From: Catajapyx aquilonaris
Taxonomy: Eukaryota
DNA: 53,024 bases
Assembly: GCA_000934665.2 (NCBI GenBank)
Contig: JYFJ02002667.1
Location: 1 to 53,024, forward strand
Reading direction: 5' to 3'
The notes under the pieces are model-generated. The model did no database searches. It was not told the DNA's origin and was given only the letters and a program-made list of their open reading frames with translations. Of the stretch, positions 1,136 through 52,223 are shown piece by piece; position 1 is the stretch's first letter; the number at the start of each line of letters is the position of its first letter. Position numbers and translations under genes: made by a program.

Positions 1136-4100
1136 CCTGAAGTGATGGAAACAATAGTTGAAGACACGTGTGGGAGTGACTCCGACTTGGACGACAGGAG
1201 TGAAATCCAGGCTGGGGTGGAACCTGCCCCCAAACGCACCATTCCTGAGGAGAGATCAGGAAGGAAGAGGGCGCAAAGAAAGGTGAGATGCGAGTTTGTA
1301 GCAAGACACAAGTTCTGAAACTATTCCTTTTCAGGTGATTGTCCAAGAAGATGAGTCCAGTACAAGAAATTCAAAAGCATCTCGAGAAGTTTTAAATCTC
1401 AGTTTGCTAAATGTAAGAGAACACCTCATCTTGTTGTGATTCCACAGTTGCATTTCCCTTTGCAATGTTAAGTAAAATCCCCGCTTGTTTAGGAGGAGGT
1501 GCCAGCAAGAGTAAGGAAGTCAAATCTGGTTGCTCAGGTCAAGATGACGGAGCAGAGCCAGACAGGCAGTGAGGACGCGATTCTAGCCGATGACCTCAAG
1601 ACTTCCAGTGCAAAGGACAGGGAACCAAAACCAATGGTAAGTCTCATTTTCCGTCATGAACAGGAAGAAATTATGCTTTTAAAAAATATATATGCTACAG
1701 GCCTACCTTGAGCAGATGAGGTCATATTTCCTCTACTTTTAAATATCCTTTCCAGCCGACCTCTGGAAATGGAAAAAGCCATAAGCCAAGCAGCTACTCA
1801 CTGGCCTTCAAGGAAAAGGTGCTTGATGCGTACGAGTTTGGCAATTCCAAATGTCGTCACAATTATGATGCAACTGCAAAGAAGTTTGGAATAAGCAATT
1901 TTGCAGTGAGGTGTTGGGTGAAGACCATGCGGCCTCACCTCCTTGCCTGCAGACAAAAGGAAGATACTGATCAGATATCTAGGAATGGGAAAAGGGTAAG
2001 ATTTGTCAGATTATTAAACAAAAAGGATAAGGACTCAACATCACTCAGAATAATTAGTAAATCAGCCACATGCTTGAGTGCTGCTAAGAAAGAGATCAAT
2101 GTTGGATAGGTACAGTTATGTACTACTGGGATGTTTGTTTTTTCACCTCTTGAATGCAGCCAAACTCCAGGAAACTGCGAATCTCCACGTCATCTCAATA
2201 CTCCCTGGATTTCAAAGAAAAGGTGCTGGAGGCCTACCAGTTTGGTGATTCCACATGTCGTCACAACATGACGGCAACTGCAAGGAAGTTTGGCCTACCC
2301 CATCAAACAGTGTGGCATTGGGTCAAGCTTCTCCAGCTCCGTCTCCTTGCCCAATCAGGCCAGAGTCAGGCCTACAAATCAAGGCGAGGCAATCATGAAT
2401 CTCATGAAATGCAGGTAAATGAACTATTTCTCTTGTCATCATACATTTGTTGGGACTTGCTGAAATGCCAAGACTACGGGCTTCTTGTCTACGGTGTGCA
2501 GTTAATTATTTTGCCAAAAATACAGGGCTCTCACAGGTCAGCAGATGGGCACACATTGTCTAGCGATTCCTCCTGGAGCGGAATGCACTGGCACCACGGG
2601 TGTGGCAGCCTCTCCCAGGCCCCCCAGGAATCCCGTTTTGGTGGTGCAGGGCGCCCACTCCCGGACGACTGCTTCCTGTTCAACAATGTCCTCGAAATGG
2701 CAATTGGGAAGGGGTTTTTTCATAGATCCGAACAGGTAAAAGTCACTGGGAGCCAGTCTGGGGTAGTACGGCAGATGTGGCGTCATCTACACCCGGATCC
2801 ATGGAAAAATCCCTTCACCGACACCATTTCAAGGACATTGTTGACAGTTGTTGACTGTGACCAGTTCTTTTCTTAGCATGTCATGGCAAAAACTATGTAA
2901 ATAATAATGCACATTTTCCTTCTTTTCGGGGAGAAAAATTATATTTTCGTTTGATCTGCTGCCATCCGGGGTCACCCACCTATCAACCACCAAAATATAT
3001 ATTATAATGTACGTTCCTATAATGAATTTTTCTACTCTTTCTAGTACTGTACACTACGCCAATTGTCTCGAATTGCAACAGGAAAGGGGGTTCTAACGTG
3101 TTGGGCCGTTGGTTTTTTTTTTGGTGGGTCGGGAACAGGTACAAATCGTATGATCATCGCGGCTAGAAAAATTACCGAATGTAGGCTTTAAAAAAATAGC
3201 GTGAAATAGCGAGGCGGAAATACTGTCCAAGTGGGGGGTGCACAAGAAGGGGGCATTTTCTGGCGGATTCCGGGTCCCTTGTTCATATGTAGCATTTATT
3301 TGCATATCGTTTTTCGCACTTTTGCAATTAATTGATGCATGTTTTTCCGTGCTTAGCCAGCAGGTTCAAGGCACAATTTATATGGACCAAACAGGCGGTC
3401 AGATTGATGATAGGCACTAAATGCTGCACACTGGCAGTCTGGCATTAGTCTACAAAGGCCGATGCACCGTCGCCAGCGGGCCGCGTCAAGATTTGCATTG
3501 TAAAATAATGAACTATAATAATAAACTACAACAAAAAAAAATCCATGAAAACGCACATATATTTCAATATAAAAATATGACAATGACAAAATAACAGGTG
3601 GTTAAGACAAATCATGACATCACATCCGCCCGCGAAATTCAAACACTACCGTATCACTACCGTAAGCGGTGCGTTGCCATCATTAAATATGGCTGTTACA
3701 AAAAAAATTGAGGGTGATGGAAACTTTCTGACTTCATATTTGGAACCAGCGCATATGAATGCATTAGAAACAGATAACATTGTTCATGTGCCGAATTCCT
3801 TGTTGACTAGTGTAATTTTAGTATGACCCTCCTATTTTTACAAAATAGCATGAACTTTTCCCTGACTGATTTTCCAACCCTAATAATTGGACAGGTGTCA
3901 TTTCGTGGCAATTGCAACACCGACCTGGCCTATTAGGATTTGAAACAATTATTATCAATTATTATGTATCTTACAAGGTTTAGGCGTAACATTGGGAAAT
4001 ATGTGAGTTGAGGGTCACGTTCGAATTCCATCATGAACATGAAGAAATTACATTTTAAAAGAAATGGTGCATCAGGCCTACCTTGAGCAGTGATATTAAC

Positions 4101-7100
4101 TTGACAACTGAACTGAACTGAGGCTGTATGATTTCCTCTACTTTTAAATTTCTGTTGCAGCCGACCTCTGGGAAAGTGACAACCCGTAAGCCACGCTTCT
4201 ACTCACTGCCCTTCAAGGAAAAGGTGCTTGATGTCTACGAGTTTAGCAATTCCAAATGTCGTCACAATGCATATGCAACTGGAAAAAAGTTTGGAGTAAG
4301 TGACTGTACCGTGAGCCGTTGGGTGCAAGCCATGCGACCTCATCTACTTGCCTGCCAACGAAAAGAAGATGCTCATCAGATGTTAGGGAATAGTAAAAAG
4401 GTAAGCCTCATCAGGTAATAATTAAGCAATGAAGAAGATGGATTCAATATTATGGGTAATAATATATTGCTAAATCAGCCACATACATCAGTGCTGGAAA
4501 GATAGCGAAAGATTGTATTGACAATATATTATGTTCTGAGATGTTTGTTTTCCATCTCTCCTGCAGCCAAACTCAGGGGAACTAAAAATCCGCAAGTCAT
4601 ATAATTACTGCCTGGATTTCAAGAGAAAAGTGCTGGAAGCCTACAAGTCTGGTGATTCCAAATGTCATCACAATGCAGCTGCAACTGCAAGGAAGTTTGG
4701 CTTACCACCAATAACAGTGTCGTCTTGGGTGAAGTTTCTCCGACCCAGTCGCCTCGCCCGTTCTGCCCAGAGTCAGGTACGTACCAATCAATGCCAGGCA
4801 GAAAGGAGTACGCCGTGGTTTTCTGTGGTTTCCCACGGTCCTTCCAGGAAAATTCCAGAGTTGCTTCCACAATTAATAGGCCACAGCCGCTTCCTTCCGT
4901 CCCTATCCTATCCTAAAAAGAGCACAATAAAATGAAAGCAAAGAGTTCCAGGCAAAACAAAAATTTCCCCCCTATAGAGCCATCGGCTGATAACGGGGTA
5001 TGAATTATTATTATTATTATTATAAATATAAACCTTGAATTTTCTACGACCTTTGCAGGAAATCAACAAGAGTGTGAAAAGACAGAGATCACACTCTCTG
5101 GACTTTAAAAATAAAGTTCTGGATGCCTATGAGTTTGGTGATTCCCCATGTCGTCACAACCAGAACGCAACTGCAAGGAAGTTTGACTTGAGCCAGGGAT
5201 TGTTGTGGATATGGCTGAAGCAGCTCCGACCCCGTCTCCTTTCCCGTTCAGCCCAAGGTCAGATGCACCAATCAAGAGGAGACGCTGATGAAAGAACAAG
5301 TGGCAATCCAAGTGTAAGAAATTGACTCTTATGGTTACTCACTGTCAGTGATGACAGAAAAAATGGAGATTCCCAGATTATTTTCTCTTCACTTACTTAA
5401 GAGCCTTTCACAATCGTTCAGGGGGTGGTGAGGGGTGGGTGATCGGGAGGGGTTTGGGCTGGAGGGGAGGAAAGACCGTACCTATAAGACTCGAGGATTA
5501 TAGGTCCGGCTTTTCCTCCCCTCCCGCCCAAACCCATCCTGATTACCTCACCACCACCTGGACAATAGCGAAAGGCTCTTAAGTAAGTGAACAGACAATA
5601 ACAAGGGACGTGCATGTTTGACCTAACATTGACAACTAATATTTCTGATAACCATGTGACAGGTACCTACTCCTTATACATTTTTAAAAAACATGCTAAC
5701 CCCTACGAAGAATCCACTTTGAACATGCTCAAGTCTCTCGGTTAAGCAAGTGTTTCTCGTGGAAGAAAAGTGGCTGTAAAGATGGGTCGCAATTCCTTTT
5801 CAAAGGCCTCGCTGCATTGTTGTCTGCTTTCCAGGAAGAGGATATATATTCTAAAACTAATCCTTTTCAGGCCAATGTCCAAGAAGATGACCGCAGCACA
5901 ACAAACTCAAAACCATCTCGACATGTTTCAAAACCCAGGCTGCAAAATGTAAGAACATTTGGACAGTGCTCTGCAATAATGAGTCAACCCGCATGAGAAC
6001 ATTGTTGTGAGAAAAGGGCTTTGAAGGTCACACCTCACTTGGAATTAATTCAGTGTCCTTTTCGGTCATTCATGGCAGATTTCGCTTGCTAGATTTTAAC
6101 TTGATCAAGTGCGATCCTTTGGGCATCCTGGGATTAGCTCAATTTCGACATTTTTGTTGGTTGACACTTTATTCTATGACACCTTCCATTTCGTCAGGAG
6201 TGACTTATTGCTGATTGGAGAGTTGCATTTCTCTCGACAAATTTGAGTGAATTCCATGCCCGTTTAGGTGGAGGTGCCAACAAGTGGAAGGAAATCAAAA
6301 CTGGTTGTTCAAGTTAAGATGAAGGAACAGAGTCAGGGAGACAGTGAGGACGCGATCACCGATGATGGCCTCAAGACATCCGGTGCAAAGGACAAGGAAC
6401 CAAAACGAATGGTAAGACTCATTTTCTGTCATGAACAGGATGAAATTACTTTAAAAAAACTATGCCAACTGAGGCTGTAAGATTTACTCTACGTACTTTC
6501 AAATATCTGTTGTAGCCGACCTCTGGGAAAGGGACAATGCGTAAAAGCAAAGGCTACTCACTGCCTTTCAAGAATAGAGTGCTAGATGTCTACGAGTTTC
6601 ACAATTCAGAATGTCGTCACAATATAAATGCAACTGCTAAGAGGTTTGGAATGAGCTTTAGTGTTGTGAGCCGTTGGGTGAAAGCCATGCGACCTCACCT
6701 CCTTGCCTGCCATCCAAAGGAAGATGCTGATCGGACGTCAAGCAATGGGACAAAGGTAAGCCTCATCAGGTTATTAAGCAATGAGGATGTGGACTCAAGG
6801 TCATTGGAAATAATTACGAAAGCTGCTGTATACTTGAGTCCTTGAAGGAAAACGAGATCAATGTTGGATAGACAGGTATGTTCAAAGTTGTTTATTCTCT
6901 TTTGTCTTCGTCTTTTGCAGTCAAACGTAAGCAGTCTGCATATCCGCACATCATCTAAATACTCCCTTGCTTTCAAGAGAAAAGTGCTGGAGGCCTACCA
7001 CTTTGATGATTCCACATGTTGTAACAATGTGTCTGCAACTGCAAGGAAGTTTGGCTTGCCACCAATAACAGTGTGGCAGTGGGTCAAGGTTCTCCAGCCC

Positions 7101-7792
7101 CGTCTCCTTGCCCGATCAGGCCAGAGTCAGGCCTACAAATTAAGACGAGGCAATCATGAATCTCATGGAATGAGGGTAAAGGAACTATTTTTATTATCAT
7201 CATACATTCGTTGGGACTCGCTGAAATGCCAAATTCTTGTCTACGGTGTGCAGTTTTTTTCCCCCCCCTTTTGCTCCTTTGTCTCTTCTCGACGTAAAGA
7301 TGAGTTTTCTTGTGAGCGATTTGATCGCCGAGCGGTAACATCGCTGAGTAACCTGAGTAACCTGTGTTGTTGGAGGAGAAAATCGATTGTGACTGTCGAT
7401 GATTTAATTAAATTGGTAACCTCTACAAACATTCGACATTGAGAACATGCTCTAATTTTGTGTTCGGTAGTAGACTAGAGTAATTGCAAACTGGAAAGTC
7501 GCATGATCTTATTGTTATTTTTCGTTCCCTTCCCGTTCAGCCTGCCCAGAAGGAAGCGGAACCCTCCGGGTCCCTCACCCAGTCGATGGACCTGAAGAGG
7601 AAGGTGCTGGACGCATTCGAGTTTGGAGATTCCTCGTGTCGTCACAACCTGGAAGCAACTGCCAGGAAATTCTGTCTCAGCACCACCACAGTGTGGTACT
7701 GGATCAGATACATTCGACCCCACCTCCTCTCCAAGAGTCAGATGAACCCGCCAAGTCAACACTCTGATGAAAGGAATGTTGGTACAAAGTAA
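1136..7792 (+). CDS. Gene A (5' end outside window): multi-exon poly-Brinker-DBD protein, 8 HTH domains
   Basis: AG/GT-bounded phase-0 exons: 1136-1282, 1335-1412, 1493-1636, 1756-1995, 2160-2414, 4161-4400, 4567-4776, 5059-5313, 5871-5948, 6268-6411, 6516-6755, 6921-7175, 7541-7792 (stop). All lengths are multiples of 3 and open. Repeated YSLxFKxKVLxxYxxxxSxCRHNxxATARKFGxxxxxVxxWVK matches the Brinker DBD pattern. Confidence 0.8.
1756..1995 (+). CDS. BrkDBD exon A1 (type I)
   Basis: 240 nt AG/GT exon; helix GISNFAVRCWVK. Confidence 0.8.
2160..2414 (+). CDS. BrkDBD exon A2 (type II)
   Basis: 255 nt; GLPHQTVWHWVK. Confidence 0.8.
2520..2870 (-). mobile_element. Mariner transposase C-terminal fragment
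   Basis: PHLPYYPRLAPSDFYLFGSMK resembles mariner HPPYSPDLAPSD(F/Y)HLF. Confidence 0.8.
4161..4400 (+). CDS. BrkDBD exon A3 (type I)
   Basis: 240 nt; GVSDCTVSRWVQ. Confidence 0.8.
4567..4776 (+). CDS. BrkDBD exon A4 (type II)
   Basis: 210 nt, donor CAG|GTACGT; GLPPITVSSWVK. Confidence 0.75.
4813..5023 (+). mobile_element. 5'-truncated SINE
   Basis: Matches body and tail of SINE 8522-8826; (TTA)n tail. Confidence 0.75.
5059..5313 (+). CDS. BrkDBD exon A5
   Basis: 255 nt; DLSQGLLWIWLK. Confidence 0.78.
5378..5600. mobile_element. MITE-like inverted repeat (copies at ~16312-16470 and ~21850-22065)
   Basis: TTCACTTACTTAAGAGCC...GGCTCTTAAGTAAGTGAA inverted arms. Confidence 0.6.
6516..6755 (+). 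CDS. BrkDBD exon A6 (type I)
   Basis: 240 nt; GMSFSVVSRWVK. Confidence 0.8.
6921..7175 (+). CDS. BrkDBD exon A7 (type II)
   Basis: 255 nt; GLPPITVWQWVK. Confidence 0.8.
7541..7792 (+). CDS. BrkDBD exon A8 (invariant terminal domain)
   Basis: DLKRKVLDAFEFGDSSCRHNLEATARKFCLSTTTVWYWIR, ends in TAA. Confidence 0.8.
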   Translation, partial: PAQKEAEPSGSLTQSMDLKRKVLDAFEFGDSSCRHNLEATARKFCLSTTTVWYWIRYIRPHLLSKSQMNPPSQHSDERNVGTK

Positions 7793-9631: not shown

Positions 9632-9650
9632 GTGGAGACCTGCAGAGGGG

Positions 9651-10010
9651 ATGATGAGCCTCCAGCCGCATCATGGACCAAGCCTGATGGCCACCGAAGA
9701 AGGGCAGTTCAGGTGCGTCTACTGCCTGGACGCCACCTTCAGGACCAGGCTGCAGCTGAGGGCACACCAGTTCGTACACGGGCCCAGGGACGAGGTCAAG
9801 GTGGAGCCAGAGGAGGATGCGGCACAGGGAAGGGTGGTCGTCGTAACAACGGAGGAGGAGAGGCCAACTGGAGGAGGGGATCAGCCGCACCAGAAGGAGG
9901 AAGAGTCCGTCTTGAACTCTGGTGGTGGTGACCCTCCAGGAGAAGCTGAACCTTCATTCGAATTCATTTCCATTGACGGCTGGCCTGGACAGAACAGGGC
10001 ACGTGCAGAG
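9651..10010 (+). CDS. Gene B first coding exon: C2H2 zinc finger + acidic region
   Basis: FRCVYCLDATFRTRLQLRAHQFVH (C-x2-C-x13-H-x3-H), then VKVEPE; donor GAG|GTAACC. Confidence 0.8.
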
Positions 10011-13000
10011 GTAACCTTCGTGGCGGTGAGGCGAAAATGGCAACCCTTCAGTACATTGTGTGTCCAGGTCACTATTGCCTGTTTAAATATAAACCCTACT
10101 GATGGGGTCGTAGCCTGCATGTAAAAAGTCGTCCTTATTTTTAAATGCGTTTTGGTGCTTTTTGTTTGAAGAAATCAATATTAGTTTTCGAGCTATGATT
10201 GATCTAAAATCATAATAATTATACGGTATTGTATTGCCCTCTCACTTCATGCTCAAACTTGTAGGGGTGATAGAGGGGACCAAGACAAGAATTTTTGACA
10301 TAGGAACCCGTGTCCGGAAACGCCATCTAGAGGGGGTTCATAGACAAGGAACGGGTGCGCTACTCAGGCTCGTCAGGCAAGAGGTGCTAGTCGAGCAGAC
10401 TGTTTTGTTGATAGGTGGCGTGCAGTTGTTGCCAGGTTATGGCGTATCGCGTAGTCACGTGGCGTCGTTGTAAAACAAACAACAACGGGACAAGCCATAA
10501 CCTGGCAACAACAGAACCGCTGTTGACTCTCCGCGCGTCTCCCAGGAGGCGGACTTTAGTTGCTAGATGGCTCTGCTGTTGCCAGGTTATGGCACATCGC
10601 ATCGTTGGTTACTATCCAAGCGCAATCTATCAACAAAACAGTCCGCCTCCCGCGTGACGCTTCTGAGCGCATCCCCTCTGGATGGCGTCTCCGGACACGG
10701 GTTCCTATGTCAAAAACACTTGTCTTGGTCCCCTCTATTACGGTACCACTGAAAGTCTTTGCAGAGTTACAATAAACACCCTGTATTATACCAGAACTCA
10801 AAAGAGTTTATAAATGTGTAACGAGTGGAAAAACCGGTTTCCAGATGTCGCCTTGGTAAGGGTGCAGTTTAGAGCCGCAAATGTCTTCCAGGTTTCTATA
10901 TATTTTCTGAATCTACTCGATGAGATGAGTCGAATGACACTATTCCTAGTGTGCGGAAATGCTTGGTGCAGGAGTAATTGAATTTTGAAATTGCAAGTAA
11001 TAACAATGAATAAATGAAAATAAACAAGTGTTCCTTTGTTGAAACAGTTTACTCCCATTGTTGAGTGAATGAATATCCGTGGTAATTTTAAACGTAGTTT
11101 GGGGGTTGTGTGTTCGCAGAAATACTGTCCGCCTTGTGGTGCCGTAGATGTGGGTGTTGCGGATGTGGATGTGGCAAAGCCACAATAACGTTCGTTGGCC
11201 TGCGGCGCCACAAGACGGCCAGTCAATGTTGCGGATACAGAAACCCACAATAAGCGCCCAGCTCCGCTTTCGCTCCGCAAAAACTAAAAATATCACGCAC
11301 AGGCGACGTACCGTGCCTGGCAGGGCCACAAGACGGACAGTACTGGTACAGTCACACCAACGCCTCACAGATAACACCAACACAATCAGAGTGGGGCATG
11401 CCTTGAGTAAAAGCTTAGGATTCATTTTGTTGGCGGGCAAGAGGCCTCGAGCAGTGGCCCAGGAGATACCAAGCAACCTCCCTCATTACTTCCAGGAAGG
11501 CTTGCCCAATTATTCCTGATAAGCACCGATGCAATGCCTTGGCCATGGACGCTCCTGAATGATGTTAAATTAAACTCCTACACTCTCGTTCCAACGAACC
11601 AAGAGCAACCGTTTATTTACATCATTCAGCATCCCTCACAGCTCGTTTCCACGGAGAATCACCTGACGCAACAATGGTAGTGAACAGTCTCAACAAAGGA
11701 ACACTTGTTTACTTTCATTTTATTCATTGTTATCACATGCAATTTCAAAATTCAATTACTCTTGAACCACACATTTCCGCACACTAGGGATAGTGTCATT
11801 CGACTCAGCTCATCGAGTAGATTCAGAAAATGTATAGAAACCTGCAAGATTTTTGCGGCTCTAAACTGCACCCAAGCCGTCGCCTTTTTTGGCCACTTGT
11901 TTGGTCAACGTGTTTGGTTGTCGGCCACTACGCGGCGCCACCGTCGAGTGCTGTCGAGATGAATTTCAATCAAATATGTTGATTTAATATCAAGAGGCAC
12001 ATAATTAAGAGTTATTAATCTAAACACTGACCGATATGAGGTCATGTGCGGTTAAGGAACTAATTTTGGACCGGAAACTGATGCTCAGGGCAGCTGGCCA
12101 CCCTGCACCTAACAATACAAATAATTACCTCAGCCTCGTTGTTTAGAAATCACGTTCGAATTTCGAAATGGAACAAGTTCCTTTGCCGACAATGGGGCTG
12201 TAGAGGGTTGGGTGCCGCGCGCTACTACTGCTGTTCGCGCACAGGGTCTCGGACCACATTCTTTTCGTTACCAAAGGACCCTCCACGGCTCTCGAGTTCA
12301 CAGGGAGAACGCTGTCAGGGTTGGGCAGGCAGGTGGGCCTCCCAACGGTTGTCAATGGTTCGTCTCAAACAATCGGGTGCATTGATAGGACTGCCAAATT
12401 CATGCCTTCATCCTTTGCGTAGTTAGTGGGGATATACAAGGAAGAAGGGAGGATTGAAAGTCCAGGTCACGTGGTTATGGAAATCATTGACGAAACCATA
12501 ATCGGTTACTGTTTGCATCCTTCACGCTTTCTTTTATCGTGACATACGTGGGCGAGTTACAATGGGGTTAAAGCTGTGGGATACAATCATCAATTAACTG
12601 TTAGCCGCACTCTCCACTTTGTGGATCCTGTGACTTGCGCAAACACTCGAGCAATCCAGTCGCAAGCTTGAAAGAAAAAGTAGGGAAGGGTGGAGTACCA
12701 AAGGCCACTTCTTTCCCTTCACTTGGCCAAGTTTCAATGGCGGAGGGAGATGAGAAGAACAGGAACTGATCCATTCATGGGATTCAAGTCTGTGGGCTGT
12801 CTTCTGGTTGTTACGTGGAACTCTGCTTTATTCTTGTTTTCGGGTCTTCAGGGGATTCTATTCGGGACAGATTTTGAGGTGATTATAAGATGGAATAGCC
12901 TTTGTGTTGGTGATGCTGTATGGCTTTTTGTCACCGCAACAGTACTGTCCCAGCACTCATCTTATCAGTTCGCATGGCACGAGTAAGAAGACGCCCTTTG

Positions 13001-32704: not shown

Positions 32705-33070
32705 ATGATGAGCCTCCCTCAGCCCCAACCAGGACCAAGCCTGATGGCCACCGAAGAAGGGCAGTTCAGGTGCGTCTACTGCCTGGACGCCACCTTCAGG
32801 ACCAGGCTGCAGCTGAGGGCACACCAGTTCATACACGGGCCAAGGGACTGGGTGAAGGTGGAGCCAGAGGAGGATGCGGCAGAGGGAAGGGTGGTCGTCG
32901 TAACAACAGAGGAGGAGAGGCCAACTGGAGGAGGGGATCAGACGCACCAGAAGGAGGAAGAGTCCATCTTGAGCTCTGGTGGTGGTGGTGACCCTCCAGG
33001 AGACGCCGAACCTTCATTCGAATTCATTTCCATTGACGGCTGGCCTGGACGGAACAGGGCACTTGCCGGG
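32705..33070 (+). CDS. Gene C first coding exon: C2H2 zinc finger
   Basis: FRCVYCLDATFRTRLQLRAHQFIH; donor GGG|GTAAGG. Confidence 0.8.
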
Positions 33071-39000: not shown

Positions 39001-40632
39001 TTCCTCATGTCGTCACAATGTGATGGGAACTGCAAAGAAGTTTGGCTTAAACAGAGGTAATGTATGGGTTTGGGTGAATCACCTCCAGCCACGTCTCCTT
39101 GCCTCCTCGGGCCAGAGTCAGAGGAACCAACCAAGGCGAGGAACTCTTGAAAGGACAAGTGACGAAGCGAGGGTGAGGATGTGACTGTTTCTATTGCCAC
39201 ACTCTTGTTGGGGCTTGCTGATATGACGAGTTTCTAAACTTCTTTTTCTGTGGGGTGCTTTTAGTCCTTTGTCTCTCATCAGAGTAAGGGGAAGTAAGGG
39301 GGCTTTGGTGCACTTGAGCCCCTCAAAAATATTGAGTGTTTCTATAGATTTCCTGAATCTACGTGATGAGCTGAGTTGATTGATACTATACGTATGTTGC
39401 AGAAACCTTTGGTTCAAAAGTTTTGGACTTTTGAAATTGCAATGAATTAACAATCAGTCAACAAAAGTTGTTGTGGCCTTGCCAGGGCCACCTCACGCAG
39501 CATCAACAGCTACTGTGCCACACAACCGCCAGTAATGTTGTGGATGCACAGCCTACAAATTACTTTTCAAATTACGATGGGAATGCCCTCATGCAACAAC
39601 AGGAGTAAACAGTTTCAACAAAGGAACACCGATTTCTTGTCATTCGTTGATTGTTAATTAAGTGCAATTTCAAAACTCAATAATTACTCTTGAAGGAAAC
39701 GTTTCTCCACCCTAGGGATAGTGCCAGTCGACTCAGCTCGTCGAGTAGACTCAGGAAATGTATGGACACCTGCACTGTTTTTGCGGGGATAAAGTGAACC
39801 CTTATCGACATGTTTTCATATCTCTCCTGGCTGACCTTCTATCTGAATCTGCCTGAAGTGAGCTTGAAACCATTCTTCAGCTGTAACTTAATCTTCAAAG
39901 AACTCATGTGTTCATGATGGTTGGTTCCAGAAGAAGACGAGATGTGGTAATGCCAACTCAGGTGACCTCGCACCAGATGGGGAACAGGCATCCAAGTCAA
40001 CGTTGCCTGCTGAGGGAGAAAAACCGAAGGGAGTGCAAAAGAAGGTAAGACCAGATTTTGTAGGAGGGAGGAACGAGTAAAAGTGATCCTCTTCAGATGA
40101 TGATTCAAGGAGATCATGATATTATAATAAACTCTTAGCTGCATATCCGGCCATCAGCGTACTCTCTGTTCCAAAAGAAATGGAGGAGCAAAATGCAGAT
40201 TTCCAGACAATAAAATGATGCACATATTCCACCCAACATTTGCAGCTAATAAGTGTGATAACATTAAAACGTAACTGATCCAAGGTTACTGCTTATCATG
40301 CAAAAAAAGATTTGTTAACTGCACATATGTGTGATATTTGAATTGCTTTTGTTGCCCTTCCTGTGCAGCCTCCCCAGAGGGAAGCGGAACCCTCTGGGTC
40401 CCTCACCCAGTCGATGGACTTGAAGAGGAAGGTGCTGGACGCATTCGAGTTTGGAGATTCCTCTTGTCGTCACAACCTGGAAGCAACTGCCAGGAAATTC
40501 TGTCTCAGCACCACCACAGTGTGGTACTGGATCAGATACATCCGACCCCACCTCCTCTCCAAGAGTCAGATGAATCCGCCAAATCAGGACTCTGCTGGAA
40601 GGAGGAATGACGGAACAAAGGTGGGGAAATAA
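32705..40632 (+). CDS. Gene C: C2H2-ZF + 7 Brinker-type HTH domains
   Basis: Exons 32705-33070, 34516-34689, 34743-34820, 34911-35054, 35170-35409, 35571-35780, 35986-36192, 36912-37151, 37316-37525, 38912(or 38924)-39172, 39931-40044, 40369-40632; phase 0, open. Confidence 0.78.
33098..33725. mobile_element. piggyBac-like non-autonomous element
   Basis: TTAA|CACTTAACTACC ... GGTAGTTAAGTG|TTAA plus subterminal GTATTTTTCTACCCCAC inverted repeat. Confidence 0.8.
34288..34409. mobile_element. PIF/Harbinger-like MITE
   Basis: TTA|AGGCCATTTCAC...GTGAAATGGCCT|TTA. Confidence 0.7.
35170..35409 (+). CDS. BrkDBD exon C1 (type I)
   Basis: 240 nt; GIDSKTVRLWVK. Confidence 0.8.
35571..35780 (+). CDS. 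BrkDBD exon C2 (type II)
   Basis: 210 nt; GLPQGTVWKWVK. Confidence 0.75.
35986..36192 (+). CDS. BrkDBD exon C3 (type II)
   Basis: 207 nt; GLHQRTVWQWVK. Confidence 0.72.
36579..36700. mobile_element. pogo/Tigger-like MITE (paralogous copy 47093-47196)
   Basis: GGATAATCGGG(G)TTCTACTGTA terminus; same intronic position in C and D. Confidence 0.6.
36912..37151 (+). CDS. BrkDBD exon C4 (type I)
   Basis: 240 nt; GIDESAVRRWVK. Confidence 0.8.
37316..37525 (+). CDS. BrkDBD exon C5 (type II; alternative donor after 37573)
   Basis: 210/258 nt; GLPRVTVMQWMK. Confidence 0.75.
37952..38110. mobile_element. PIF/Harbinger-like MITE
   Basis: TAA|GGCCGGGTTGCACCGGCTCC...GGAGCCGGTGCAACCCAGCC|TAA. Confidence 0.8.
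38912..39172 (+). CDS. BrkDBD exon C6 (canonical acceptor mutated)
   Basis: GLNRGNVWVWVN; acceptor ATTACGG vs ATTACAG in paralog D4. Confidence 0.6.
40369..40632 (+). CDS. BrkDBD exon C7 (invariant terminal domain)
   Basis: CLSTTTVWYWIR; stop at 40632 or donor AAG|GTGGGG after 40620. Confidence 0.8.
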   Translation, partial: PPQREAEPSGSLTQSMDLKRKVLDAFEFGDSSCRHNLEATARKFCLSTTTVWYWIRYIRPHLLSKSQMNPPNQDSAGRRNDGTKVGK

Positions 40633-43492: not shown

Positions 43493-43510
43493 GAATATCC
43501 TGCAAAGGGG

Positions 43511-43807
43511 ATGAGTCTCCACCAGCCCCACCGTGGCCCGCTAATAAGCAGCATGGCCACCGAAGAAGGGCAGTTCAGGTGCGTCTACTGCCTGGACGCC
43601 ACCTTCAGAACGAGGCTGCAGCTGCTGTGCCACCAGTTCATACACGGGCCTGGAGACACTGTGAAGGTGGAGCCGAAGGAGGATGCCGCAGAGGCGGTCG
43701 TAACAATGTTGGAGACGGAGAGACGTGAAGGAGGGGATCAGTCGCACCAGAAGGAGGAACCTTCATTCGAATTCATTTCAATTGGAGGCTGGCCTGGACA
43801 GGGGGAG
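43511..43807 (+). CDS. Gene D first coding exon: C2H2 zinc finger
   Basis: FRCVYCLDATFRTRLQLLCHQFIH; donor GAG|GTGAGG. Confidence 0.8.
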
Positions 43808-46800
43808 GTGAGGGTCGGTTCATTAAAATGGCCTACCCTCCATACTTGGCATGGGAATGCCCAGGGGCGGGGGCAAAATTCCCCGGGCCCGCGTGACCCG
43901 GTAGTATAATATTAATAAGAGATGGATTTCCAGAAGGAAAGTATAAAAAGTGAGACACGATCGTAAATGGGGCAGCAGCGACTGATTTCCTTGGGAATGT
44001 TATGCCTTAATGCCACTCTTGCCCTGAAATTGAATTCCGACGACATCACTGACAGAATTCGCCCTGGATAGGAAGGCCGGACAAGTTGAGTTGACCAAGT
44101 AGTGCGCATGGGTATGTCTTATGTGCATCAGTGCATACAGGAATCACATGAGAAGATCAAGTATTTCATGTGCTGCATTCCAACAGTTTTGCCATCCTGG
44201 ACCAATTTGCCATAATTTACATACGGCTACTACAAAATTGTCGAAAGTTACCGGGTTATCGCTGCCTCGCCATATCTGTAATATGTTTGCGTGGACAGTA
44301 AATACAGCCTACGACTGATTATTATGGGAGTCCGGATTTTTAGGCAAATGCCTATTTAATTCATTAACAGTTGGGATGGTTTTGTGAAGAGATCTATTCA
44401 TTTCATAAGTGCCGAATGCGGGGAATGTAGGTTTTATAGTGCCTATAATGGCCTATTTCGTGGTTTTGGTTGACTTTCTGCGACTTTTCATGCCTACTTG
44501 GCCTTTTTTGGGATGGTTTTTGAACTTTTTGAGGCGATTTTGAGACTTTTTTTTGAAAAAATTCCAATTTCAGGACTTTTTGGGCTTATTTCTTCATATG
44601 CATGTTTGGTTTTTTTTAAAGAGTTTTTTTTGTGCTCCTGAAAGGACCAAAATGGTTCAGAAGTAATACTACAAGTCATGTTTGTGTGGCGCTTATGCCA
44701 AATATTTTTCTTAATTTTCCTCTTATTGTTCCAACCAGAGGAAAATTTAGAAAAATATTTGGCAACATATATTGTGCAAGTGGAAACTGGCTATACCCGG
44801 TAATAGAGTCCAGCACAAGTGATACTTGTTTGCACTGTGTGTCTTTTGCCCAAGTTTCCTAATTTCCTGTCGGTTGTTCGGGTTATGCTCTGGTTTGTGA
44901 CCTTACATTCATACTTATAAAATTATTCTAGCTTTTTTATTTTTGGTAACATTATCCTCCAGTATTTAAAAATGTGTGCCTATTTGAGGGTTTATTCGTG
45001 CCCATTTCTGGGTTTTTTCGTGCCTAAAAATCCGGACTCTACTGATTATGTTTCCCGATATAATCCCACTGCCTTTTTCTTGCGGACAGCAATTTCGAAC
45101 GAAAATGTTTAACTGTCACTGTCTGTATTTGAGCGAAGGGGGCCTGAATCTTTGTCGTCCATGGGGCAAGGCTCGACATGTCTCTGGCCCTGGCCATGCC
45201 AGTATGGTCTGTTTAAATATAAACCCTAGGGATGAATGAATGTTAATTGAACTGTCCTGAATGTAAAGTATACAACCTCATTAGAAATTATTGTGATGTT
45301 AGCTGAAGCTAATCCAGCAACGCATTCAACTTCAGCTTCAGAGCTTGTAATGCCATGAAATGAGGGCAATGCAAATGGACAGAAATGTTCACTGAACCTA
45401 TGGTATTTAAAAATTTAATGTGGTATTGCAGGGAGTCGAAAGTGTAAGAGCAGAGCAGCCTGATGTGATGGAAACAGGAGATGAAGACACATGTGGGAGT
45501 GACTCCGACATGGATAGCAGGGGTGAAATCCAGGCTGGTGTGGAACCTGCCCCCAAACGCACCATTCCTGAGGAGAGAGCAGGAAGGAAGAGGACGAAAA
45601 GAAAGGTGAGATGAGAGTTTGTAGCGAGACACAAATTCTGAAACTCTTCCTTTTCAGGTGACTGTCCAAGAAGACGAGTACGGTACAAGAAATTCAAAAG
45701 CATCTCGAGAAGTTTCAAATCTCAGTTTAAACAACGTAAGAGAACACTGCATCAGGAATGACATGTTGTGATTCCACAGTTGCATTTCTCTTTGCAAAGT
45801 TAAGTATAATCCCTGCATGTTTAGGAGGAGGTGCCAGCGAGAGAATCAAAGCTGCTTGCGCGGGTGAAGATGATGCAGCAGAGCCAGGCAGGCAGTGAGC
45901 GCACGATTCTAGCCGATGACCTCAAGACATCCAGTGCAAAGGACAAGGAACCAAAACCAATGGTAAGCCTCACTTTCCGTCATGGACTGGACGAAAATAC
46001 GCTTCAAAAAATTTATGGTACAGACCTACCTTGAGCAGATGAGGTCATATTTCCTCTACTTTTAAATATCCGTTTCAGCCGAACTCTGGAAAGGGAAAAA
46101 CCAGTAAGCAAAACAGCTACTCACAGGCCTTCAAGAATAAGGTGCTCGATGTCTACGAGTTTGACAATGCCGAATGTCGTCACAATTACGATGCAACTGC
46201 ACGGAAGTTTGGAATAAGCGCATGTGCTGTGAGGAATTGGTTGAAATCCATGCGACCTCACCTCCTTGCCTGCCGAGCAAAGGAAGATGCTCATCAGATG
46301 TTAGGGAATAGGAAAAAGGTAAGCCTCATAAGATTATTTATAAGCAAAGAGGAAGATGGATTCAAGATCACCGGTAGTAATTACTAAATCTGCCACATAC
46401 CCCATCAGTGCTGGGAAGAAAGAGAGCGAGATTGTCTTGACAATATAATATTATGTTCAAAATGTTTGTTTTCCACCTCTTCTGCAGCCAAAGGCAGGGG
46501 AACTGGAAATCCACGCGTCATATCGTTACTCCCTGGAATTCAAGAAGAAAGTGCTGGAAGCTTACCAGTCTGGGGACTCCAAATGTCGTCACAATGGAGC
46601 TGCAACTGCAAGGAAGTTTGGTGTACCCCAACAAACACTGTCGAAATGGGTGAAGTTTCTGCAGTCCCGTCACCTTCTCCAATCAGCCCAGAGTCAGGTA
46701 CGTACCAATCAAGGCCAGGCACTCGTGAAAGGAGAAGTCACGACAGGAGGGTAAATGAACTATTATTTTCCTAAATCACCACACTTCTGCTGGTAGTTGC

Positions 46801-49800
46801 AGAAATGCCAATTCCATGAAATGTGGGTTGCTCTTTGCTCCTTTGATTCCCTCCGAATAAGAAGGGATGCTGGCAGGTTGTGTTTGGCATGAATGAGACG
46901 AGAATCCATTCAAAGTCTGTGTGTCTTGGGCAGTTAGGGGAGCAGTTTCAAAAGAATCGAAAAGGCACCCAGAATATGTGCATTTTTAAATGCCAACGAT
47001 GCAAACTTATGCAAAGTAATGTTATACCACAATATGAAGCCAGTGATATGCCCACAAGGGATTTATTTTTAAAGATTATATTATTTTGGTTATACAGAAG
47101 AACCCGATAATTCGATCTCTGATTATCCGAGGCCCTTTTATGTGCTCCGACCATGGCTTGATCCCGTGGGTGACGGATAATCGGGGTTCTACTGTACATG
47201 TTTTTTGAATCCCTCTGGGCTCACATTTCTCACCCCTACATTTTTCACTTCGTTTGGGCCAACAAGTGTGCTCCTAGTCAGAGGAGATAGACTAAATATA
47301 CACCTTGAATTTTCCACCACCTTTGCAGGAAATCAAGGGGAGTGGGAAAAGATGTAGATCACACTCTCTGGACTTTAAAAATAAAGTTCTGGATGCCTAT
47401 GAGTTTGGTGATTCCTCATGTCGTCACAACCAGAGCGCAACTGGAAGGAAGTTTGGCTTAAACCAAGGAATGTTGTGTAGATGGGTGAAGCGGCTCCGAC
47501 CCCATCTCCATGGCCTTTCAGCCCAAGGTCAGATGCACCAACCACAACAAGATGCTGATGAAATAGCAAATGACAAAACAAGGGTAAGAATTTGACTCTT
47601 AACATTACTCAGTGATGGCAGAAAAAAATGTAGAATCGAGAGAAAGGAGACCAAAACTGGTTGCTCCGGTTAATGTGATGGGACAGAGTCAGGGAGACAG
47701 TGAGGACACAATCCTTGCTCACGAGCTCAACACATCCAGTGCAAAGGACAAGGAACCAAAACCACATGTAATAATTCCTTCATATGCAGGATAGTCTCTA
47801 ATAATATATAGATTGAACAGTTATTCTGCTTTAAAGAAGCCAAATTCGCCAAGCAATATCATACCACTAATTCCCTAATTCTGTGACGATGCTTTTATGT
47901 CCCGTCAACACTCATTGCCTTGATATAGTAACCATGGTTGATCACTTATGCCGTTCATTAGACGCCACATGGCGGTCAGAAAATGTGGGTTCCACTTCAG
48001 TGGAGGCGAGACACGTACTGATCATCATACCACTAGAAGCCTTATCCTCTCTGTATGCTTGTACTACTAATCCCCATATTCTCTCCGTCTGGCCCTGCTG
48101 AAATTGTTTAAGTGAATTTAAAGCTCAGCCATTTGCGGAATGCATTTAAGCGGCAAAATGTCAGGTGTGTCCAACCCCTCATATAGGGCTCATTATTCCC
48201 CACACTGGGGCTAAATTGACTTCGGAAAACACGGAATCCTTTTCTAGCATGGCAATTCTCTGCCGTACTTATGAAGATGTATACATCAAATCAATGCAAA
48301 AGTTAATTGCATTTTGGAGGGGGAGAGTCAAAGCTATACCTAAGCCCAGACTCTTTGATCACAGAAGACAATGAGGATATGTAAGATTACCATGCCGAAT
48401 TTCTGACATGTTTGCCGAAAATACGATGGCAACTTTATCTGGAATGGATGTTACATGAGTGTGTGACAGATTCCTTTTCCTTCATAAGGAGGAAGAAATT
48501 GTGTAGAAGAAACTATGCTAACATGACCAGTGACGTTAACTTGACAAGTGATTATGTAAGATTTTAATTTCGTAATATAGCATATACGTTTATATTACAG
48601 CCAATTTCTCAGGACAGGACAATCCACAAGAGATGCGTCTACTCCCTGGCTTTCAAGAGAGAAGTTCTGGAGGCCTACCAGTTTGGTGATTCCTCATGTC
48701 GTCACAATGTGATTGCAACTGCAAAGAAGTTTGGATTAAACAAAGGAACGGTGTGGTATTGGGTGAATCGCCTCCAGCCACGGCTCCTTGCCTCCTCGGC
48801 CAAGAGTCAGAGGAACCAACCAAGGCCAGGCACTCGTGAAAGGACAAGTGACGAAATGAGGGTGAGGATCTGACCGTTTCTATTGCCACACTTTTGTTGG
48901 GACTTGCTGATATGAGAAGTTACCAAACTTCTTTTTCTGTGGGGTGCTTTTTGCCCATTAGTCTCTTATCAGAGTAAGGGGAAGAAAAAAAAATGTATGC
49001 TGATAGGTTGTGGTTGACATGAATGAGGCAGAAGTCCATAAAAATGCTGGGCTTTGGTGCTCATTAGTCCCACAAAAATATTGCATGTTTCTTTAGATTT
49101 CCCGAATCTACTTGAGGAGCTGAGTCGAATGATTCTATTCGTAGGTTGCAGAAACTATTGGTTCAAAAGTTATTGAGTTCTGAAATTGTAATGAATTAAC
49201 AATCAGTCAGCAAACATTGTTGTAGCCTTGCCAGAGCCGCCTCACGCAACATCAACATCTACTGCGCCACACAACCGACAGTAATGTTGTGGATGCACAG
49301 CCTACAAATTACTTTTCAAATTACAACGGGGATGCCCTCATGCAACAACAGGAGTGAACAGTTTCAACAAAGGAACACTGGTTTATTTTCATTTCATTCA
49401 TTGTTAATTAAGTGCAATTTCAAGATTCAGTTGCCCTGGAATGAATCGTTTCTCCACCCTAGGGATAGTGCCAGTCGACTCAGGAAATGTATGGACACCT
49501 GGAATATTTTTGCGGGGATAAAGTGCACCCTTACCGACGTGTTTTCCTATCTCTCCTGGCTGACTTTCTTTCTGAAGCTGTCTGCAGCAAGCTTGAAACC
49601 ATGCTTCAGCTGTAATTTAATGTTCAAAGAACTCATATGTTCCTATGGTTGGTTCCAGAAGAAGACGAGATATGGTAATGCCAACTCAAGTGACCTGGCA
49701 CCAGATGGGGAACAGGCATCCAAGTCCACGTTGCCTGCTGAGGGAGCAAAACGGAAGGGAGCAGAGAAGAAGGTAAGGCCAGATTTTGTAGGAGGGAGGA

Positions 49801-50453
49801 ACGAGTAAAAGTGATCCTCTTCAGATGATGGTTCAAGTAGACAATGATATTACCATAAACACTTAACTGCCTATCCAGCCATCAGCGTACTTTATGGGCA
49901 AAAGAAATGGGGGTGCAAAATGCAGATTGCCCGACAATAAAATGATGCACATATTCCACCCAACATTTGCTGCTCATAAGTGTGATAACATTTAAATGTA
50001 ACTGATCCAGAGTTACTGCTTATCATCCAAAAGAAGATTTGCTAACCACTCTTAAGAATTCACATGGAACATGCTGCAGAGTTATATGCAGAAATGATTC
50101 GGATAGTTGCAAACTGCAAACTTATGTGATTAATAAATTGCTTTTTTTTTCCACTTCCTGAGCAGCCTCCCCAGAAGGAAGCGGAACCCTCTGGGTCCCT
50201 CTCCCAGTCGATGGACTTGAAGAGGAAGGTGCTGGACGCATTTGAGTTTGGAGATTCCTCGTGTCGTCACAACCTGGAAGCAACTGCCAGGAAATTCTGT
50301 CTCAGCACCACCACAGTGTGGTACTGGATCAGATACATTCGACCCCACCTCCTCTCCAAGAGTCAGATGAACCCGCCAAATCAGGACTCTCCTGGAAGGA
50401 GGAATGACGGAAACAAAGATGAACGAATAATTACTAAATGCAATAAGCAATAA
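43511..50453 (+). CDS. Gene D: C2H2-ZF + 5 Brinker-type HTH domains
   Basis: Exons 43511-43807, 45432-45605, 45658-45735, 45825-45962, 46079-46318, 46488-46697, 47329-47583, 48601-48861, 49659-49772, 50166-50453; phase 0, open. Confidence 0.78.
44323..45041. mobile_element. hAT-like non-autonomous element
   Basis: GAGTCCGGATTTTTAGGCA / TGCCTAAAAATCCGGACTCTA TIRs; CTGATTAT repeated on both flanks. Confidence 0.65.
46079..46318 (+). CDS. BrkDBD exon D1 (type I)
   Basis: 240 nt; GISACAVRNWLK. Confidence 0.8.
46488..46697 (+). CDS. BrkDBD exon D2 (type II)
   Basis: 210 nt; GVPQQTLSKWVK. Confidence 0.75.
47329..47583 (+). CDS. BrkDBD exon D3
   Basis: 255 nt; GLNQGMLCRWVK. Confidence 0.8.
48601..48861 (+). 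CDS. BrkDBD exon D4 (absent from ORF track)
   Basis: 261 nt; YSLAFKREVLEAYQFGDSSCRHNVIATAKKFGLNKGTVWYWVN. Confidence 0.8.
50166..50453 (+). CDS. BrkDBD exon D5 (invariant terminal domain)
   Basis: CLSTTTVWYWIR; stop at 50453. Confidence 0.8.
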   Translation, partial: PPQKEAEPSGSLSQSMDLKRKVLDAFEFGDSSCRHNLEATARKFCLSTTTVWYWIRYIRPHLLSKSQMNPPNQDSPGRRNDGNKDERIITKCNKQ

Positions 50454-50702: not shown

Positions 50703-50870
50703 GCACATCAATTGCGCTGCTCCAACTGCAAGACATGTAGTACCACATCTGTGTGGCGAAGGAATAATGGCAAGCGAGTGTGTAATTCTTGCGGCCAGTA
50801 CTTCAAAGTGTATGGTACGAATCTGACTCTGACCCAAGCGAAGAATGTCATCAAAAGTTATAGCTGGTGA
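50703..50870 (+). CDS. Intact GATA-type zinc-finger exon behind gene D
   Basis: [64 protein letters not shown] = C-x2-C-x17-C-x2-C with WRR; phase-0 acceptor. Confidence 0.6.
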   Translation, partial: AHQLRCSNCKTCSTTSVWRRNNGKRVCNSCGQYFKVYGTNLTLTQAKNVIKSYSW

Positions 50871-51140: not shown

Positions 51141-51376
51141 GGATTCCAAAGTCCCCTAAGTCCATTTTTGTTGTTTTGAGAAATTTGAGATTTTATTGGT
51201 ATCAATAACATGGGATTATATGGGATTTGAGAAAACTCTCTGATTTTTGCGCTTGGAGTTAGGGACATCATTTTGGTGTGTTCTGACCTCGGGAGGAGGA
51301 GGGGAGTACCATAAGCTACCAACAGATGCCATCAGCTCATTTTTCATGAAAATGGACTTAGGGGACTTTGGAATCC
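51141..51376. mobile_element. MITE with 28-bp TIR
   Basis: GGATTCCAAAGTCCCCTAAGTCCATTTT...AAAATGGACTTAGGGGACTTTGGAATCC; absent at the paralogous sites (~8270, ~31615). Confidence 0.75.
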
Positions 51377-51939
51377 CACTCTTATTATGAGAACAAATAA
51401 TGCGCTTCCTGAGGGTGCTGGAACTTGAATGATCTCATTCAGCCAGTAAATATCTGACTTGCTCTGGAAACAAACTGTGTTTCATTTTCATGGCTTTACA
51501 TGTTGTGGAGTCCCCGCAACTGATGGATCCCTCCTCTGCCTGCACACCTATACGTGGAGCAACGAACATGAATGTATGACCTTGCAGCAATCACGGAATT
51601 TCCCCAATCAATGTTTGGACTTCTGTGTGGCTTTTCCACCTTATTGCCTGACTACAGCAACCAGGGCTGTGACCTTGACCTTCCAATAACTGCAGCATGG
51701 AATGTTCCTCCAGTTCATCTCATCACACCCAATGATTAGTTAAAAACTTATATTATTATTTTTAAGTGTGTGTTTGTTTTTTTTACTGTCAAACTCCATA
51801 TGTAAGCTGCATCAAAGTGTGACAATAGGGGTTGCGGGTTGGGTTTGTCATGAAAGCCTCCTCCTGCTGTCGCCATATGTTTAGCAGACGATTTGGGAAG
51901 AAATGAACTGATGGGCATAACCGACAGCCTTTTCAACAG

Positions 51940-52223
51940 GCGCCACCTTCAGGACCAGGCTGCAGCTGAGGGCACACCAGTTCATACACGGACCAAGGGA
52001 CGAGGTCATGGTTAAGCCTGAGGTGGATGCGGCAGAGGGAAGGGTGGTCGTGACAATGGTGAAGAAGGAGAGACGTGAAGGAGGGGATCAGCCGCAAGAG
52101 GAGGAGGAGGAAGAGTCCATCTTGAACTCCGGTGGTGGTGACGACCCTCCAGGAGATGCTGAACCTTCATTCGAATTCATTTCCATTGACGACTGGCCTG
52201 GACGGAACAGGGCACGTGCCGAG
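51940..52223 (+). pseudogene. Gene E first exon, 5'-truncated (promoter, ATG and both ZF cysteines deleted)
   Basis: ATFRTRLQLRAHQFIHGPRDEVMVKPE...PSFEFISIDDWPGRNRARAE|GTGAG is paralogous to the B/C/D ZF exon. Upstream sequence jumps from the equivalent of ~9148 to ~9730 of gene B. Confidence 0.7.

Follow-up and report, generated by a model that had tools for sequence, protein, structure and literature searches.

Arrays of DNA-reading modules that can evolve new specificities are known in animals almost only from C2H2 zinc fingers, helix-turn-helix (HTH) factors usually carrying one to a few domains. A contig of Catajapyx aquilonaris (JYFJ02002667.1, assembly GCA_000934665.2) raises the question of whether an HTH domain can be multiplied within single genes in the same manner. 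The 53,024 nucleotides analysed here (positions 1 to 53,024 of the forward strand, hereafter the window) hold 38 copies of the HTH domain known from the repressor Brinker, which we call Brk modules and which fall into four arrays. The reading that we favour, with moderate confidence, is that of a tandem cluster of intron-rich poly-Brinker-domain genes, an HTH counterpart of the KRAB-, ZAD- and FiNZ-type zinc-finger clusters.

Identity, exon structure and coding constraint of the Brk modules

By motif scan of the six-frame open reading frames (ORFs) we identified 38 full-length BrkDBD-type HTH domains of about 58 residues each, all of them on the forward strand. A profile hidden Markov model (profile A1) was built from the alignment of the 38 copies and rerun on all six-frame ORFs of at least 25 residues. 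It recovered the same 38, again all on the forward strand, each at full length and with E ≤ 5e-31 to its own profile, and showed neither partial nor decayed copies on either strand, the sole extra row being noise (E = 46). A first-pass annotation of this DNA had claimed 38 domains in arrays of 5 to 18, and both methods bear this out, the arrays holding 8, 18, 7 and 5 modules in their order along the window.

When compared with Pfam, the modules matched BrkDBD (PF09607) more often than any other family, with 34 of the 38 at E ≤ 0.01 and a best value of 1.3e-10. Generic HTH models came next (HTH_28 with 26 of 38, HTH_23 with 14 of 38). Transposase-type models were rare, HTH_Tnp_ISL3 being matched by six members and HTH_Tnp_1 and CENP-B_N by three each, while none of the 38 matched HTH_Tnp_Tc5 or, at E ≤ 0.01, HTH_psq (PF05225). 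The curated BrkDBD cut-off of 23.4 bits was exceeded by five of seven whole-exon ORFs scanned, the other two reaching 14.3 and 21.3 bits. Brinker and the modules have in common the core FK..VL..Y...C..N..ATA.K[FY]G.....[IV]..W, and in a search of the PDB profile A1 scored best against 2glo, the solved Brinker domain (E = 5.2e-9), followed by a chain at E = 0.21. An AlphaFold model of the domain, built with A1, has a mean predicted local distance difference test score of 87.7 and three helices, at A1 residues 7–19, 28–35 and 39–57. Searching the PDB with this model in Foldseek again placed 2glo, a Brinker-DNA complex, at rank 1 (template modelling score 0.73, probability 1.00), with an E-value of only 0.05 because the domain is so small.

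Each module occupies an exon of its own. All 38 exons have lengths that are multiples of three, are in phase 0-0 and lie behind an in-frame AG acceptor preceded by a pyrimidine tract, and the 34 internal ones end in phase-0 GT donors of the forms AAG/GTAAGC, AGG/GTAAAG or CAG/GTACGT (the slash marks the exon end). Linker and first exons are likewise in phase 0. On joining all exons in silico, each of four gene units (g0 to g3; Table 1) yields an uninterrupted frame that ends at a stop, and all four predicted proteins are strongly basic, with isoelectric points (pI) of 9.5–10. The window has a G+C content of about 45% throughout, its introns are short, and CpG is depleted (observed/expected 0.59) with TG and CA in excess.

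Coding constraint is apparent from nine pairs of paralogous segments. Over 4470 alignment columns the Brk exons carry four indels, all of 3 nt, as against 65 indels over 9116 columns in the flanks, 51 of which are not multiples of three (Fisher p = 1e-7; Poisson probability of no frameshifting indel in the exons 1e-11). Under random substitution of 3–8%, the probability of finding all 38 exons open is 2e-6 to 1e-14. These counts, together with repeats in the introns that resemble miniature inverted-repeat transposable elements (MITEs), agree with the earlier statement that every domain exon is open while the introns carry indels and transposon debris.

Variable positions and growth of the arrays

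The ratio of non-synonymous to synonymous change at each site (omega) was obtained from parsimony counts on a tree. Values of 0–0.12 were found at F18, K19, V22, L23, Y26, S31, C33, N36, A39, T40, F44 and W54, which make up the scaffold, and values of at least 2 at columns 13, 37, 38, 48, 49 and 53. On the structural model the latter are predicted to be a single residue immediately ahead of the domain, the two opening residues of helix 2 and helix 3 positions 1, 2 and 6. A contact set was chosen in advance on the basis of the model and of common HTH geometry (positions 1–2 of helix 2; positions 1, 2, 5 and 6 of helix 3); its omega was 1.48, compared to 0.42 in the rest of the domain (Fisher heterogeneity p = 2.5e-9). 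The literature searched held nothing usable on the residues with which Brinker contacts DNA. At nine variable positions 34 of the 38 modules have distinct signatures, the four modules that terminate the arrays (T modules) sharing one. In all nine segment pairs the Brk exons are, moreover, less alike than the non-Brk DNA that surrounds them (for example, 0.884 versus 0.957 and 0.797 versus 0.916). We suggest that selection keeps the modules open and maintains their hydrophobic and structural scaffold, with the first residues of helix 2 and the outward-facing side of helix 3 left free, or driven, to change; since the scaffold is kept and the recognition residues change, almost every module would come to have a recognition signature of its own.

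The locus has grown by recent block duplication. Within g1 a tandem duplication of 5.9 kb relates 13105–15961 to 18975–21813 (92%) and 16466–18666 to 22070–24273 (93.5%), a 412-bp tandem repeat in g2 (35493–36305) gave rise to two exons of one class, at 35571 and 35986, and self-comparison uncovers many older module pairs that are 75–88% alike. On a tree the 38 modules fall into classes A (14), B (15, among them the two exons of the 412-bp repeat), C (1), D (2), E (2) and T (4). Modules A and B alternate and have been copied as pairs together with the intron of about 160 nt between them, which suggests a working unit of two HTHs. The arrays have grown by tandem duplication of exon blocks whose recurring unit is an A plus B pair with its short intron, and the gene family is best read as young and still expanding.

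The T module behaves differently from those within the arrays. Its exon closes each array, and the DNA of its domain core is 97–98% identical between the four genes, with flanks at 87–92%. The dN/dS (omega over the exon) is 0.21–0.30, and the recognition signature is the same in all four. A stop codon follows within 0–15 codons of the homologous point in four of four T exons, and there is no conserved donor. The T exon thus appears to be the last coding one, an in-frame GT ahead of the stop being absent from three of the four.

Gene units, flanking exons and 3' ends

Upstream of three of the four arrays lies an ATG-bearing first exon with one C2H2-like finger and a phase-0 donor at a homologous place. 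The first-pass annotation had each gene run from a zinc-finger exon through linkers to its array. This order holds for three units; the first array has no zinc-finger exon in the window because the window starts about where the first intron of g0 would lie. A further claim, of at least five paralogous genes, is reduced to four arrays, belonging to three complete genes and one cut by the window start, as the fifth unit is represented only by a remnant of its first exon. This remnant has lost about 580 bp (equivalent to 9149–9730 in g1), including the ATG and the Cys pair, and keeps the donor GAG/GTGAGG at 52223.

The first exons begin MMSL..MATEEGQFRCVYC..H-x3-H, the finger pattern C-x2-C-x13-H-x3-H being found in all three. 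In four of four copies, including the truncated one, the first coding exon ends with the motif EPSFEFISI(D/G)(G/D)WPG. This motif is invariant, had no family match and may serve as a short linear motif recognised by a partner protein. Just ahead of each start codon (9585–9650, 32640–32704 and 43420–43490) we noted a donor of the GG/GTGAGT type with a ..GGGCAG/ or ..CACAG/ acceptor about 55–60 nt further on, possibly a very short intron in the 5' untranslated region. A block of about 350 bp situated 0.7–1 kb upstream of the first exons (31629–31983, 51384–51743 and, in part, 8898–8972) is 93.6% identical between copies, the neighbouring DNA being about 87% identical, and might act as a promoter or regulatory element common to the units, or else represent a young repeat.

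Between first exon and array, and again ahead of later blocks of modules, lie two kinds of linker exon. The N type, with eight copies and two short versions (N'), encodes an acidic CGSDSDLDD stretch followed by a K/R-rich one; the L type, with nine canonical copies and one divergent L', encodes ..KLVA.VKM.EQSQ..SSAKDKEPKPM. No Pfam family was found on N or L exons, and no effector-type Pfam family scored above threshold on first, N or L exons. The N exons (noted at 1150–1200, 13250–13300 and 34550–34600) carry ..IVEDTCGSDSDLDD.. before the K/R-rich stretch, an arrangement suggestive of a phospho-regulated SUMO-interaction motif beside a nuclear localisation signal. The second N-type exon of g0 (5700–5993; compare 16690–16988) was lost when a deletion of about 115 bp joined its opening codons to the downstream intron. 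The frame of g0 is unaffected by this loss because all exons are in phase 0.

About 250 nt downstream of each T exon we found an ORF for a GATA-type zinc finger, which is absent from the first-pass account. The copy behind g3 is intact, flanked by phase-0 splice signals (AG acceptor, GT donor), and is the only one of the four in which the pattern C-x2-C-x17-C-x2-C scores above the family cut-off (Table 1). No conserved donor was found that would link the GATA ORF to an array. We considered a GATA exon as the general 3' end of these genes and rejected it, since an in-frame donor ahead of the stop is lacking in three of the four T exons, and only one of the four GATA copies is undamaged. The ORF may be left over from an ancestral unit and perhaps remains in use in g3; this suggests that the ancestor combined C2H2, Brk and GATA DNA-binding parts. 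In three of the four units the hexamer ATTAAA stands at a homologous place (8088, 31158 and 50687), 234–296 nt after the stop of the T exon; as a candidate polyadenylation signal it would leave the GATA ORF outside the mRNA.

Table 1. Gene units, exons and associated features in the window (+, forward strand; N, N', L and L', linker exons; T, terminal module)
Feature	Position	Strand	Description
Gene unit g0	1136..7792	+	open frame of at least 793 aa, 8 Brk, N and L exons, pI 9.9; 5' end beyond the window
g0 array	1756-7792	+	8 Brk
g0 Brk exons	1756-1995, 2160-2414, 4161-4400, 4567-4776, 5059-5313, 6516-6755, 6921-7175, 7541-7792	+	
g0 linker exons	N 1136-1282; L 1493-1636, 6268-6411	+	
Gene unit g1	9651..30906	+	30 exons, 18 Brk, 2088 aa, pI 9.84, introns 98-3205 nt
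g1 array	13874-30906	+	18 Brk
g1 Brk exons 1-6	13874-14113, 14275-14529, 15268-15507, 15659-15868, 17512-17751, 17911-18162	+	
g1 Brk exons 7-12	19736-19975, 20134-20388, 21120-21359, 21511-21720, 23126-23365, 23521-23772	+	
g1 Brk exons 13-18	25991-26230, 26403-26612, 27639-27878, 28037-28288, 30106-30363, 30655-30906	+	
Gene unit g2	32705..40632	+	11 exons, 7 Brk, 805 aa
g2 array	35170-40632	+	7 Brk
g2 Brk exons	35170-35409, 35571-35780, 35986-36192, 36912-37151, 37316-37525, 38924-39172, 40369-40632	+	
Gene unit g3	43511..50453	+	9 exons, 5 Brk, 658 aa
g3 array	46079-50453	+	5 Brk
g3 Brk exons	46079-46318, 46488-46697, 47329-47583, 48601-48861, 50166-50453	+	
Remnant of fifth unit's first exon	51942..52223	+	86% match to g1 9731-10090
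ATG-bearing first exons	9651-10010 (g1), 32705-33070 (g2), 43511-43807 (g3)	+	one C2H2-like finger, phase-0 donor at homologous place
EPSFEFISI..WPG motif	9980-10010, 33040-33070, 43780-43807, 52190-52223	+	invariant
N exons	1136-1282, 13216-13389, 16690-16812, 19082-19255, 22298-22420, 26829-26951, 34516-34689, 45432-45605	+	AG acceptor, GT donor, phase 0
N' exons	39931-40044, 49659-49772	+	
L exons 1-5	1493-1636, 6268-6411, 13612-13755, 17270-17413, 19475-19618	+	13612-13755 with GC donor
L exons 6-9	22878-23021, 27393-27536, 34911-35054, 45825-45962	+	
L' exon	28912-29055	+	
Terminal (T) Brk exons	7541-7792, 30655-30906, 40369-40632, 50166-50453	+	apparent last coding exon of each array
GATA ORF, g3 copy	50703..50807	+	intact; Pfam GATA (PF00320) 35.3 bits, cut-off 26.8; AG acceptor, GT donor, phase 0
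GATA relic, g0	8104-8202	+	acceptor lost, ORF cut after CGQYT
GATA relic, g1	31174-31275	+	2 of 4 Cys replaced, 20.6 bits
GATA relic, g2	~40921-41029	+	only 74% DNA similarity left

Alternative readings and known systems

As genes, the units would encode very basic proteins of a nuclear type, in which a C2H2-like finger and the exon ending in EPSFEFISI..WPG are followed by acidic and K/R-rich linkers, by 5–18 Brk modules (one three-helix HTH per phase-0 exon) and by the conserved T module as an 'anchor'. By homology with Brinker each module may bind a short DNA site through helix 3, and the proteins would bind DNA sequence-specifically at multiple sites, probably in a repressor-like role, with specificities that change rapidly from one paralogue to another. 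One can go further, by analogy, and propose that arrays with as many as 18 modules keep pace with rapidly changing repeats, for instance transposons or satellites, as an exon-modular HTH equivalent of the KRAB-zinc-finger system. Each module would then read a short DNA word, reshuffling would proceed by exon duplication and gene conversion and possibly by alternative splicing, and a common anchoring or effector function would come from the unvarying final module and from the motif of the first exon. We put this extension forward tentatively and regard it as doubtful.

Several points weigh against the favoured reading of a poly-Brinker gene cluster. Splicing, and the inclusion of all modules of an array in one mRNA, are read from sequence signals, and some of these deviate: the usual acceptor of the g2 exon at 38963 is mutated from CAG to CGG, so that the model takes an in-frame AG 12 nt further on, the third L exon has its GC donor at 13755, and an L-like piece of g3 (about 47603–47767) was excluded from the model for want of a usable acceptor in phase 0. 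When run X5 and DNA run X1 were compared with 32400–52300 they gave contigs only, and in 15 joints inspected none falls at a predicted exon junction. The finger of the first exon stays below the Pfam threshold (zf-C2H2_4 at E 0.019, 0.024 and 0.23; 12.7–16.1 bits compared to a cut-off of 27). In the comparison of indels and identity the paralogous pairs share exons and are not independent, and N and L exons are counted among the flanks. The assignment of the variable sites to DNA contacts is predicted from the model and general HTH geometry, the one-sided test for omega above 1 at the contact set is borderline (p = 0.05), and whole-exon dN/dS is mostly below 1 (range 0–2.5, median 0.66, with 6 of 21 internal pairs above 1). 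For the positional pair 13925/19787 the likeness is only about 80%, within introns that are 93% identical; 19787 is closest to an exon of another gene, and the synonymous divergence (dS) of the pair, 0.31, is far above the divergence of the introns (about 0.07). Such high dS in positional pairs points to gene conversion rather than to selection on new mutations, and patch-wise gene conversion between array exons apparently contributes to module diversity. Lastly, neither the protein libraries nor the metagenome contigs searched yielded a relative with the same poly-Brk architecture.

The main rival accepts the genes as real and takes the modules for a cassette-exon repertoire. A given mRNA would then carry a single Brk exon or A-B pair, or only a few of them, together with the constant terminal module, giving many small isoforms of one to three HTHs, comparable to the variable exons of Dscam or the protocadherins, and no giant arrays. 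Every exon is symmetric (0-0) and holds one whole module, so that exons can be combined in any number without loss of frame; the terminal module stays the same and the internal ones differ, as with a constant region behind variable exons; and N and L linker exons recur ahead of blocks of modules. However, the strict alternation of A and B and their paired duplication with a short intron fit joint use better than mutual exclusion, the introns of 98–220 nt between neighbouring exons are of ordinary constitutive size, and no second ATG-bearing first exon or promoter-like unit is found inside the arrays. On exon order, intron size and the position of first exons, we consider such a repertoire rather unlikely.

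A transposon origin was the other reading to be weighed, with the modules as HTH parts of pogo/Passer transposases or as a locally multiplied non-autonomous element in decaying DNA. According to the available text of PMC7386202, BrkDBD is present in Passer-group pogo transposases and in POGK; a few modules match transposase HTH models weakly, and MITE-like inverted repeats lie nearby. The window contains 18 inverted-repeat pairs, MITE-like elements situated in introns and intergenic DNA, and not one of the 18 brackets a Brk exon. In 94 further ORFs of at least 85 residues on both strands, no DDE or other transposable-element protein domain was detected at Pfam E ≤ 0.001, the only matches being the GATA relic and one sub-threshold row at chance level. 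Furthermore, all module copies lie on one strand, inside splice signals and in phase 0, and their frame is kept whereas their flanks are frameshifted. Transposase HTHs within elements bounded by terminal inverted repeats (TIRs) had been named at the outset as a result that would speak against the gene reading; instead BrkDBD is the best family, and neither bracketing TIRs nor a DDE domain accompanies it. We rejected a pogo/Passer transposase or a POGK-type domesticate, which would combine BrkDBD with HTH_Tnp_Tc5 and DDE_1 between TIRs, on the same grounds and on the complete lack of Tc5 matches, and hold a transposon origin to be very improbable.

Some of the MITE-like elements have long inverted arms that are 92–96% complementary (10860–11873, 41289–42886 and 37948–38114; in the first intron of g1 and the gap between g2 and g3), and 37050–39040 is a high-copy repeat, as judged by very high word depth in a DNA sequencing run. 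No part of the window matched Rfam at the gathering threshold.

Least probable of all is an assembly artefact, in which a far smaller locus would have been over-expanded or its copies wrongly joined: the locus repeats are 75–93% alike and 347 of 3841 short-read contig records (DNA run X1) fit two places, but the paralogous blocks differ by 7–25% and nearly every module has its own signature, so that they are not collapsed or duplicated reads of one copy, and four DNA runs of one sample, which may be the source data and hence not independent, hold 63–69% of the 31-mers sampled from 43400–52300.

We return to the poly-Brinker gene cluster and its relation to known proteins. Profile A1 gave 239 matches at E ≤ 0.001, 79 of them at 1e-10, among 1.84 billion representative proteins. 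At the top stand Brinker-like proteins that have two or three domains and a near-fixed recognition helix (..IHRRQIQKWL..); two of these proteins bear insect names. Among matches with many matching stretches, P0007 (13) and P0082 (9) look bacterial by sequence and P0084 (13) is a low-complexity repeat protein. Against longer proteins A1 had three matches, two insect Brinker-like proteins and one unnamed record, and the terminal exon had none; against proteins of similar length A1 had no match. A scan of metagenome contigs returned 409 pattern matches, none of which was confirmed, and the ESM Atlas gave scores of up to 0.86 to generic bacterial and viral HTH clusters, which serve as leads only. 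The literature searched contains no description of a poly-Brinker array, and the initial impression that no gene of this architecture has been described is in keeping with both the literature and the protein databases searched.

The genes share with Drosophila Brinker and arthropod Brinker-like proteins the domain family PF09607, the conserved core and a fold model that is closest to 2glo. Brinker-like proteins have one to three domains and a near-fixed recognition helix, whereas the genes of the window have 5–18 and vary at exactly those positions, and the C2H2-like first exon and the N and L linker exons have no counterpart in Brinker-type proteins. CtBP- and Groucho-type recruitment motifs, which we take to be P.DL[ST], FKPY and WRPW, were not found in the four gene models. 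An orthologue of Brinker, the Dpp-pathway repressor, is ruled out by the number of domains, by the variable recognition positions and by the lack of a CtBP or Groucho motif.

Pipsqueak has a short tandem set of Psq HTH repeats, and an array of this type is rejected here on the absence of HTH_psq matches. Pogo-derived HTH factor genes have undergone lineage-specific expansions across animals, as gene families and not as arrays, in the available text of PMC10027918. As far as this and the transposase source extend, Pipsqueak, CENP-B and pogo-derived factors resemble the window family in having a related small HTH, in part of transposase origin, and in lineage-specific expansion; they differ in that the expansion is in gene number, with one or two HTHs per protein (a few in Pipsqueak), as against 5–18 modules here with neither HTH_psq nor DDE. 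In pufferfish, the available text of PMC4263296 counts 42 BrkDBD genes on 38 scaffolds in T. flavidus, five in Tetraodon and none in T. rubripes; their identity with the window family is not supported, because the pattern is one of dispersed single genes and no close library match was found. Two distant library proteins of eukaryotic type also carry several HTHs: P0110, in which C2H2 fingers alternate with five CENP-B_N/BrkDBD-like HTHs, and P0111, with six. The finger of P0110 bears a weak likeness to that of our first exons (pairwise E = 0.009). Both differ from the window family in having no more than five or six modules and in their low similarity to the modules here (whole-protein profile E = 1.7e-7).

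Close in organisation are the KRAB-ZNF, ZAD-ZNF and fish FiNZ-ZNF clusters of zinc-finger (ZNF) genes, which are young tandem paralogues with arrays of small modules, a fixed scaffold, variable specificity residues and module duplication. The window likewise holds tandem paralogues, module arrays, a conserved scaffold and variable specificity residues, a likeness of analogy and not of homology. Its module is a three-helix HTH of about 58 residues with linkers of 20–30 residues and an exon of its own, whereas the ZNF arrays consist of C2H2 fingers in one exon, and unlike the ZNF clusters its genes have no KRAB, ZAD or FiNZ effector domain. The first-pass view of the locus as a lineage-specific HTH analogue of ZNF clusters finds partial support in the paralogue cluster, the spliced-type exons and the variation at predicted DNA-facing positions; its term 'programmable' stands only as an analogy. 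One module per symmetric exon makes the locus a clean case of protein growth through exon duplication, and 34 distinct recognition-helix variants on one scaffold would offer a natural series for how a poorly studied domain that folds on binding reads DNA. If our reading is true, the array-plus-cluster strategy would not be tied to zinc fingers, and should the tentative extension to fast-evolving repeats hold as well, animals would have, alongside the ZNF clusters, a second, independent route to an evolvable reader of long DNA targets.

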